A stretch of DNA of 64,000 nucleotides. Source: an uncultured Thiotrichales bacterium. Its GTDB lineage: Bacteria > Pseudomonadota > Gammaproteobacteria > UWMA-0217. Positions 6,615 through 6,726 of the stretch are shown here, piece after piece. The position numbers were made by a program, and so were the translations under genes. The notes under the pieces are model-generated. The model worked only from the letters and a program-made list of their open reading frames with translations. It ran no database searches and was not told the origin of the DNA. Every line of letters starts with the position of its first letter. Position 1 is the stretch's first letter. Where the stretch lies: the NCBI GenBank assembly GCA_964620675.1, contig CAZUJU010000012.1:2251-66250 (forward strand). The letters are read 5' to 3'.

Positions 6615-6726
6615 CTCCTGCCTCCTGCCTCCTGCCTCCTGCCTCCTGCCTCCTGCCTCCTGCCTCCTGTCTCCTGCCTCCTGTCTCCTGCCTCCTGTCT
6701 CCTGTCTCCTGTCTCCTGTCTCCTGC
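6615..6726. repeat. Perfect tandem heptanucleotide repeat (CTCCTGY)x16: 7x CTCCTGC, then alternating CTCCTGT/CTCCTGC
   Basis: Read directly: ctcctgc x7, then ctcctgt, ctcctgc, ctcctgt, ctcctgc, ctcctgt x4, ctcctgc, totalling 112 bp. It is intergenic, immediately after the stop of 6222..6614 and 17 bp upstream of a TTGACA hexamer. The minus strand reads (G/A)CAGGAG, so there are 16 AGGAG cores. Confidence 0.95.

Follow-up and report, generated by a model that had tools for sequence, protein, structure and literature searches.

Genes and features of the locus

The locus addressed here lies in a window of 64 kb, meaning the whole stretch of DNA that was analysed, from an uncultured Thiotrichales bacterium. 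The contigs originate from the Lake Alchichica microbialite metagenome (PRJNA315555). A heptanucleotide tandem array stands between two genes of the plus strand (Table 1), and the wider neighbourhood includes genes for a uracil-DNA glycosylase, a GNAT acetyltransferase, a NUDIX hydrolase and a multihaem cytochrome/TPR protein.

The gene upstream of the array encodes a small membrane protein, for which no Pfam family was matched. Its homologues share 34-59% identity and end at the same position, which supports a real gene, and near the C-terminus the protein carries a SHAPxxFRH motif, of which SHAP..R is invariant among the homologues. The start of the gene was placed at 6222 by the NCBI caller and at 6273 by the ENA caller. 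Taken as longest ORFs, this gene and the uracil-DNA glycosylase gene (5288..6223, minus strand) overlap head-to-head by 2 nt; the callers differ on both starts, giving 287 or 311 aa for the glycosylase and 113 or 130 aa for the membrane protein. Distant homologues of the membrane protein adjoin sodB rather than a glutaredoxin gene. In Sulfurisoma-like Betaproteobacteria (loci L128 and L130) the membrane-protein gene follows an Fe-superoxide dismutase gene, and here it precedes a thiol oxidoreductase gene. These neighbours hint at a redox-stress role for the family.

The gene downstream of the array encodes a predicted exported protein of the thioredoxin/glutaredoxin fold. Its translation shows a signal peptide, with a cleavage site after LANA, and the active-site motif CPHC. 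Against the Pfam Glutaredoxin family it reaches 23.0 bits, the cut-off being 22.9 bits; weak Grx3 matches are found in NCBIfam and PDB, and the database name of the product is 'glutaredoxin family protein [Thiotrichales bacterium]'.

Table 1. Positions of the features discussed, counted along the window
Feature	Position	Strand	Remarks
Upstream gene, 130-aa small membrane protein, function unassigned	6222..6614	+	ORF; stop TAG at 6612-6614
Heptanucleotide array (CTCCTGY)16	6615..6726	+	minus strand reads (RCAGGAG)16; from sequence reading and Tandem Repeats Finder
Block of 7 CTCCTGC units	6615..6663	+	9 units in the ENA allele; none in the 5-copy allele
Alternating units T, C, T, C	6664..6691	+	missing in the 5-copy allele
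4 CTCCTGT units and terminal CTCCTGC	6692..6726	+	sole remainder in the 5-copy allele; 3 T units in the Logan contig
Inverted repeat CAACAAA-N7-TTTGTTG	6727..6747		A/T-rich; no T-tract after it; partly kept in the sister species
Conserved 15-nt block TGTAAACTTTGTTGA	6734..6748	+	identical in the sister species; TTGACA (6745..6750) is its tail
Conserved block GCCCTGCTAGACT	6792..6804	+	identical in the sister species; includes TGCTAGACT at 6796..6804
Shine-Dalgarno region GAGAGGAG of the downstream gene	6856..6863	+	reads CAGAGGAA in the sister species
Downstream gene, 133-aa predicted exported thioredoxin/glutaredoxin-fold protein	6874..7275	+	signal peptide, CPHC motif
37-bp tandem repeat CTGGGTTCCGGCATTCCTCATTGCACATCCCTGTGCA, 4.5 copies	19732..19895		between convergent GluQ-tRNA synthetase-like and gamma-glutamyltranspeptidase genes

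Extent and composition of the array

The array consists of 16 units of 7 nt, set head to tail without interruption over 112 nt, just as a preliminary description of this DNA had stated. Tandem Repeats Finder reports it at 6615..6727 with a period of 7, 16.1 copies, 94% matches and a score of 184, and finds at most 4.5 copies in the other short-unit arrays of the window, making this array the longest by far. A two-unit CTCCTGY pattern with up to one mismatch gave 15 matches, all within the array, where shuffled sequences lead one to expect 0.05; the array is therefore not a product of chance. The seventh base is the sole variable position of the unit. Read along the array, it spells CCCCCCCTCTCTTTTC, which represents seven C-units, an alternating T-C-T-C, four T-units and a final C-unit. 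The base counts of the tract are C 58, T 38, G 16 and A 0, so that 86% of it is pyrimidine. With 16 unbroken units and one degenerate position, it is the long, near-perfect, short-unit tract that characterises simple sequence repeat (SSR) contingency loci.

The first base of the array directly follows the TAG stop codon of the upstream gene. This agrees with the preliminary description, which was also right that changes in the array leave the upstream ORF unaffected. The gap between the array end and the TTGACA hexamer needs a small correction, as it measures 18 nt (6727..6744) and not 17 bp. The inverted repeat that starts in this gap was not called as a terminator by the terminator scan.

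Copy number among assemblies

The same locus was retrieved from three other assemblies through exact-protein look-up. All four versions of the array are short-read metagenome assemblies, not reads, and the ENA and Logan versions both derive from run SRR3310977. The window holds 16 units, and the 'Thiotrichales bacterium' MAG GCA_050330555.1 holds 5, reading TTTTC at the variable position. The ENA MEGAHIT contig holds 18, with nine C-units against the seven of the window. The Logan assembly (k = 31) breaks within the array, and its right contig reads ...TCTTTC where the window reads ...TCTTTTC, one T-unit fewer. The two contigs that read through the array equal the window at every base of the flanks compared, 2,727-2,818 nt to its left and 3,500 nt to its right, more than 6 kb together; the Logan contig, which begins in the array, matches the window on the right at 3,500 of 3,500 nt. 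Copy number thus differs (5, 16, 18 and a T-unit-minus form, all taken from assemblies) among genomes that are otherwise near-identical, as in a contingency locus. The array is equally a VNTR or microsatellite of the MLVA type, that is, a short-unit array variable among close strains, a class which does not require a function. A right-junction pattern search for further alleles in JGI metagenomes gave 0 matches.

The differences between alleles consist of whole units only and are located in three separate sub-blocks. Because only whole units change, the tract is taken to be hypermutable, and across these assemblies of near-identical strains we regard this as very probable. The preliminary description had named the array a substrate for slipped-strand mispairing and an invariant copy number as the finding that would speak against a contingency locus. 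The comparison found variation instead, between otherwise identical flanks, and the substrate claim stands.

Variation that is read from assemblies may also be made by assemblers. The array could be real and present as a single allele in the population, with the copy-number differences being artefacts of short-read de Bruijn assembly. Every version does come from a short-read metagenome assembly, the Logan contigs break in the CTCCTGY array, and the ENA contig breaks in the 37-bp array. However, two sequences need k-mers that are missing from the 16- and 18-copy alleles: CATAG+CTCCTGT, at the left junction in the 5-copy allele, and C-T-T-T-C, the context seen in the Logan contig. By the principles of these assemblers, a de Bruijn collapse cannot make such k-mers, and the reads should therefore contain them. 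Furthermore, the run of C-units measures 49-63 nt and is shorter than the k = 127 of the ENA contig, and the changes are clean, whole-unit ones across three different sub-blocks. We consider it very unlikely that the differences are artefactual.

The second array of interest in the window, the 37-bp tandem repeat, terminates in a hairpin, TTCCGGCA..TGCCGGAA. It was considered as an invariant control for assembler behaviour, but proved variable too, making it unusable for this purpose and instead a support for general VNTR behaviour. Its unit make-up in the window differs from that in GCA_050330555.1 and the ENA contigs, one of which ends within it. Nearby, at 19616, one base past the stop of the 312-aa tRNA-synthetase-like gene, the window has C and GCA_050330555.1 has A. 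This SNP is the only point difference between the two in about 11 kb compared. One SNP over this length, together with differing arrays, indicates that the assemblies represent near-identical but not identical strains, in which the arrays are the fastest-changing sites. Since the 37-bp array varies as well, variation is here a general property of VNTRs and not the sign of a dedicated switch.

Conserved blocks and the position of the promoter

A sister species (locus L005) from the same metagenome has the same gene order, with a glutaredoxin-like protein 82% identical to that of the window. Its spacer between the two genes is 311 nt long, non-repetitive and without any tandem repeat. It provides the single close orthologous locus, the next relative standing at 35% identity. 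In the alignment of the two spacers, two blocks are conserved besides the ribosome-binding region. The first, TGTAAACTTTGTTGA, starts 7 nt past the array end and has no second copy within the window; the other, GCCCTGCTAGACT, lies 48 nt beyond it. The distance between them is 62 nt from start to start in both species. Both blocks are perfectly conserved with equal spacing, against an identity of only about 80% in coding sequence between the two species.

The preliminary description had read the perfect TTGACA as the mark of a promoter, and this part did not hold. No acceptable -10 hexamer was found 16-19 nt past TTGACA by sequence reading and promoter scan, the promoter scan called no sigma-70-type promoter on the plus strand, and the hexamer reads TTGATA in the sister species, being the tail of the conserved block. 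As a sigma-70 -35 element, TTGACA was rejected; the closest hexamer resembling TATAAT is TATCAG, which stands 21 nt off and is without T6. Comparison of TGTAAACTTTGTTGA by eye with known consensus sequences gave no fit in both species to a CRP, FNR, TyrR, PhoB, ArcA or GacA site, nor to a sigma-E, sigma-32 or sigma-54 element. The block could be where a regulator binds, or an UP-like element. From the sequence, the best candidate for an extended -10 of the downstream gene is TGCTAGACT. This placement would put the transcription start near 6811, TGTAAACTTTGTTGA near -70, and the array from about -85 outward.

Contingency repeats are expected inside an ORF, in the spacer between -35 and -10, in the gap between a regulator site and its promoter, or in the 5'-UTR. 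The present array is outside the ORFs, not between promoter hexamers, and upstream of both conserved blocks. Every conserved non-coding block is downstream of it, and upstream of it there is coding sequence only. Because of this order, copy number cannot alter the spacing of hexamers or the distance from TGTAAACTTTGTTGA to the candidate -10.

It was proposed in the preliminary description that the array is a contingency locus. In its DNA-level form, the proposal is a rheostat, in which copy number changes the sequence context ahead of the CPHC glutaredoxin-fold gene's promoter and subpopulations come to differ in the amount of the protein. This could work through a repeat-binding protein, or through a shift in distance or helical phase relative to a distal site, so far unrecognised, within the final part of the upstream gene. 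Each 7-bp unit turns the helical face by about 240 degrees. The tract is hypervariable among near-identical strains, it ends close to the 15-nt block and to TTGACA, and the downstream product is predicted from its signal peptide to be exported. SSRs upstream of promoters have precedents as rheostats (PMC12721329). Against this, the -10 hexamer is missing 16-18 nt after TTGACA, the array stands outside the conserved blocks and leaves their spacing unchanged, and nothing but coding sequence is found upstream of it. Additionally, the same gene pair occurs in the sister species without any repeat, the 37-bp array of the same contig is also variable, and a thiol oxidoreductase would be atypical as a phase-variable product. 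We therefore hold a rheostat to be possible but rather unlikely. Of the contingency-locus proposal, the hypermutability of the tract stands, and the lever on downstream expression is disfavoured by the anatomy of the locus, in which the array falls outside the conserved blocks.

Possible effects at the RNA level

From 6614 to 6874, the terminator scan found no terminator-like site on the plus strand. The array may therefore be transcribed by read-through from the upstream gene, and its RNA, (CUCCUGY)n, could exert control as a loading (rut) site for Rho or, as a secondary idea, by masking the Shine-Dalgarno sequence through CUCCU. We judge such read-through control improbable. The Rho version, in which the array length (35 to 126 nt) sets how far transcription runs on into the glutaredoxin-like gene, is given a similarly slim chance.

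The tract does have the properties of a rut site, which is C-rich, G-poor, unstructured, untranslated and about 70-80 nt or longer, and it begins at a stop codon. Its C/G ratio of 3.4 over 100 nt ranks within the highest 0.1% among all 100-nt segments on both strands, and it contains 47 YC dinucleotides. The plus-strand RNA of 6600..6900 folds worse than its shuffles (z = +2.25), and the absence of a terminator-like site would leave the RNA open to such control. Rho needs roughly 70-80 nt of RNA, a length which the alleles of 35-126 nt straddle, the 5-copy allele (35 nt) being too short for a rut site. On the other side, the sister species has no tract of C over G after the same stop codon (C/G 0.9-1.5), so that a Rho function of this kind is not conserved, and a literature search found no paper that links SSR phase variation with Rho. 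Were the array a length-tunable Rho loading site, as its composition would allow, subpopulations would differ in read-through from the membrane-protein gene into the oxidoreductase gene. We give this little credence. It would amount to phase variation of a terminator, and not of a promoter or a reading frame, a prospect just as faint. At least one further plus-strand 100-nt stretch with a C/G of at least 2.8 was seen, near 39.8 kb of the window.

In the RNA, only the 8-nt Shine-Dalgarno sequence is complementary to the repeat, and in the modelled read-through RNA the two do pair. The effect is, however, small: the mean unpaired probability is 0.26 without the repeat and 0.12-0.15 with it, and a version made of pure C-units gives 0.22. 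The idea that CUCCU repeats mask the Shine-Dalgarno sequence was accordingly set aside, its effect in the thermodynamic model being small and not robust. An RNA hairpin like that of the Haemophilus hmw genes was looked for and is absent, in keeping with the fold of 6600..6900 against shuffles. As for known RNA families, the only Rfam match is a chance-level one to the ffh sRNA (E = 3.3) at 6449..6532, inside the upstream gene and off the array.

The opposite strand

The minus strand reads as 16 consecutive AGGAG motifs, as was noted in the preliminary description. Two ORFs with 'RRQEAGG' repeats, at 6326..6751 and 6541..6849, are called there and overlap the conserved plus-strand gene. They had been dismissed as artefacts, rightly so, since they overlap a conserved gene and rely on a repeat that is missing in the sister species.

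A minus-strand (RCAGGAG)16 transcript might instead function as a sponge, either for a protein of the CsrA/RsmA type through its 16 GGA motifs or for ribosomes through its 16 AGGAG motifs. The number of motif copies is in line with this, and the CsrB repeat, CAGGA(U/C/A)G, resembles the CAGGAG unit. But sponges of the CsrB/RsmZ type have their own transcription unit and expose GGA in loops. Here, no promoter-like or terminator-like site was found on the minus strand beside the array, the transcript would enter the conserved gene in antisense, and in the fold the GGA motifs are not in hairpin loops. There is no Rfam match over the array, and the repeat is missing in the sister species. We regard a sponge as hardly credible.

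A probably young and hypermutable tract

On balance, we think it probable, by a modest degree, that the CTCCTGY array is a young, slippage-driven, hypermutable heptanucleotide VNTR, and that it is near-neutral. The tract would have arisen in this lineage, in the spacer between the membrane-protein gene and the CPHC glutaredoxin-fold gene. Whole units would then be gained and lost by slipped-strand mispairing or unequal exchange, with the sub-blocks apparently changing independently of one another, and either process would lead to co-existing near-identical strains with 5, 16 or 18 copies. The tract is located between the upstream stop codon and the putative promoter region of the downstream gene, outside every conserved element. 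As its length changes shift nothing known to matter, they are taken to be selectively near-neutral. At most, the effect on the neighbouring genes would be graded and incidental.

In favour of a near-neutral VNTR are the demonstrated presence of the tract, its demonstrated polymorphism in whole units, its demonstrated absence from the spacer of the sister species, and the position of all conserved blocks downstream of it. Against it, bacterial genomes seldom contain long perfect SSRs. An array that abuts the likely promoter region of an exported-protein gene has the classic setting of a contingency locus. In addition, a very C-rich and G-poor tract that starts at a stop codon could have relevance at the RNA level.

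If the array is merely variable, it offers a convenient means of telling strains apart in this uncultured Thiotrichales population, and a further example of tandem arrays that are the fastest-changing sites of environmental genomes and are reported unequally by assemblers. If it were true that copy number sets the expression of the CPHC oxidoreductase, this would be a rare case of SSR phase variation in a free-living non-pathogen; and if it did so via Rho, the mechanism would be one so far undescribed.

The same unit in other genomes

Arrays of CTCCTGY were also sought elsewhere, with one genome per species and a requirement for stretches of four or more units. The scan returned at least 120 stretches with at least 137 arrays, which have 4-13 copies among the matches listed. 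With 16-18 copies, the window array is longer than any of these 137 arrays, the maximum among the matches listed being 13. Most of the listed arrays belong to filamentous cyanobacteria (Okeania, Caldora, Symploca, Trichodesmium, Nostoc), and the other taxa among the matches listed are Acidobacteriota, Verrucomicrobia, Chloroflexi, Bacteroidota and Proteobacteria; none of the matches listed is a Thiotrichales record. Some of the listed arrays are flanked by convergent genes, which rules out a promoter role for them.

Some further observations concern the surroundings of these arrays. When the arrays of loci L006-L125 are oriented as CTCCTGY, the next ORF to the right is on the opposite strand in 57 cases vs 30, among the matches listed; the opposite-strand ORF is often only 4-80 nt from the array, with ORFs called crudely (at least 100 aa). 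Many listed arrays stand just past a stop codon and have a sense strand that reads RCAGGAG; they are oriented oppositely to the window array. In other Proteobacteria, CTCCTGY occurs as one block of composite heptamer arrays (CTTCTGT, ATTCTGT, CTCCTGG, CTTCCGG, CACTCCT). Such composite loci were seen at L060 1400-1700, L104 4050-4250, L051 2990-3200 and L042 1250-1400; in L051, a (GCCGGAA)n arm opposite a (CTTCCGG)n arm forms a long inverted repeat built of heptamers. One Danish gammaproteobacterial MAG has two composite heptamer loci.

Comparison with known repeat systems

One of the closest known counterparts is found in Haemophilus influenzae, where the heptameric SSR (ATCTTTC)n lies upstream of the exported-protein genes hmw1A and hmw2A (PMC12721329, PMC8262952). 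There, the repeat belongs to the 5'-UTR and pairs with a G-rich arm into a long hairpin, which RNase III cuts, and more copies lead to lower expression (PMC12721329). The present array is like hmw in its 7-nt unit, its tens of copies, its non-coding position upstream of an exported-protein gene, and its slippage variation within populations. Unlike hmw, its best promoter candidate, the candidate extended -10, is downstream of the array. It is also without a complementary arm, and its RNA is less structured than shuffles. It therefore does not form a hairpin of the hmw type, and the hmw1A mechanism, which depends on that hairpin, is inapplicable given that the RNA of this region folds worse than shuffles. 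The hosts differ as well, that of the window being a free-living environmental bacterium and that of hmw a host-adapted pathogen.

The TAAA tract of Neisseria nadA and the TA tracts of Haemophilus hif are SSRs in a promoter spacer or upstream of a promoter. The window array is like them an intergenic SSR by a promoter, for which graded expression is possible. They are set between defined promoter or regulator elements, whereas the window tract is outside all conserved elements and has coding sequence upstream of it. That intergenic SSRs beside promoters may grade expression is stated in general terms in PMC12721329.

Cyanobacterial STRR sequences are 7-bp intergenic tandem arrays of unknown function (PMC2670836). 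The window array is similarly an intergenic 7-bp array, and CTCCTGY itself forms many cyanobacterial arrays. In filamentous cyanobacteria, however, STRR are dispersed with many copies per genome, whereas the Thiotrichales window has one array in 64 kb; its 16-18 copies also stand against at most 13 for CTCCTGY arrays among the matches listed. With a single array in 64 kb, and in a Thiotrichales organism, the locus does not belong to the cyanobacterial STRR.

Both Coxiella and the Thiotrichales are Gammaproteobacteria. The loci ms23, ms24 and ms33 of Coxiella burnetii are 7-bp VNTR typing markers with 7-27 copies (PMC1488860). The Coxiella loci were established by PCR on cultured isolates, unlike the window alleles, which come from metagenome assemblies alone. 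In other respects they are alike, with 7-bp units, a few to 27 copies, differences among very close strains, and no assigned function. The kind of array is ordinary and known, and the present locus is a new instance of it.
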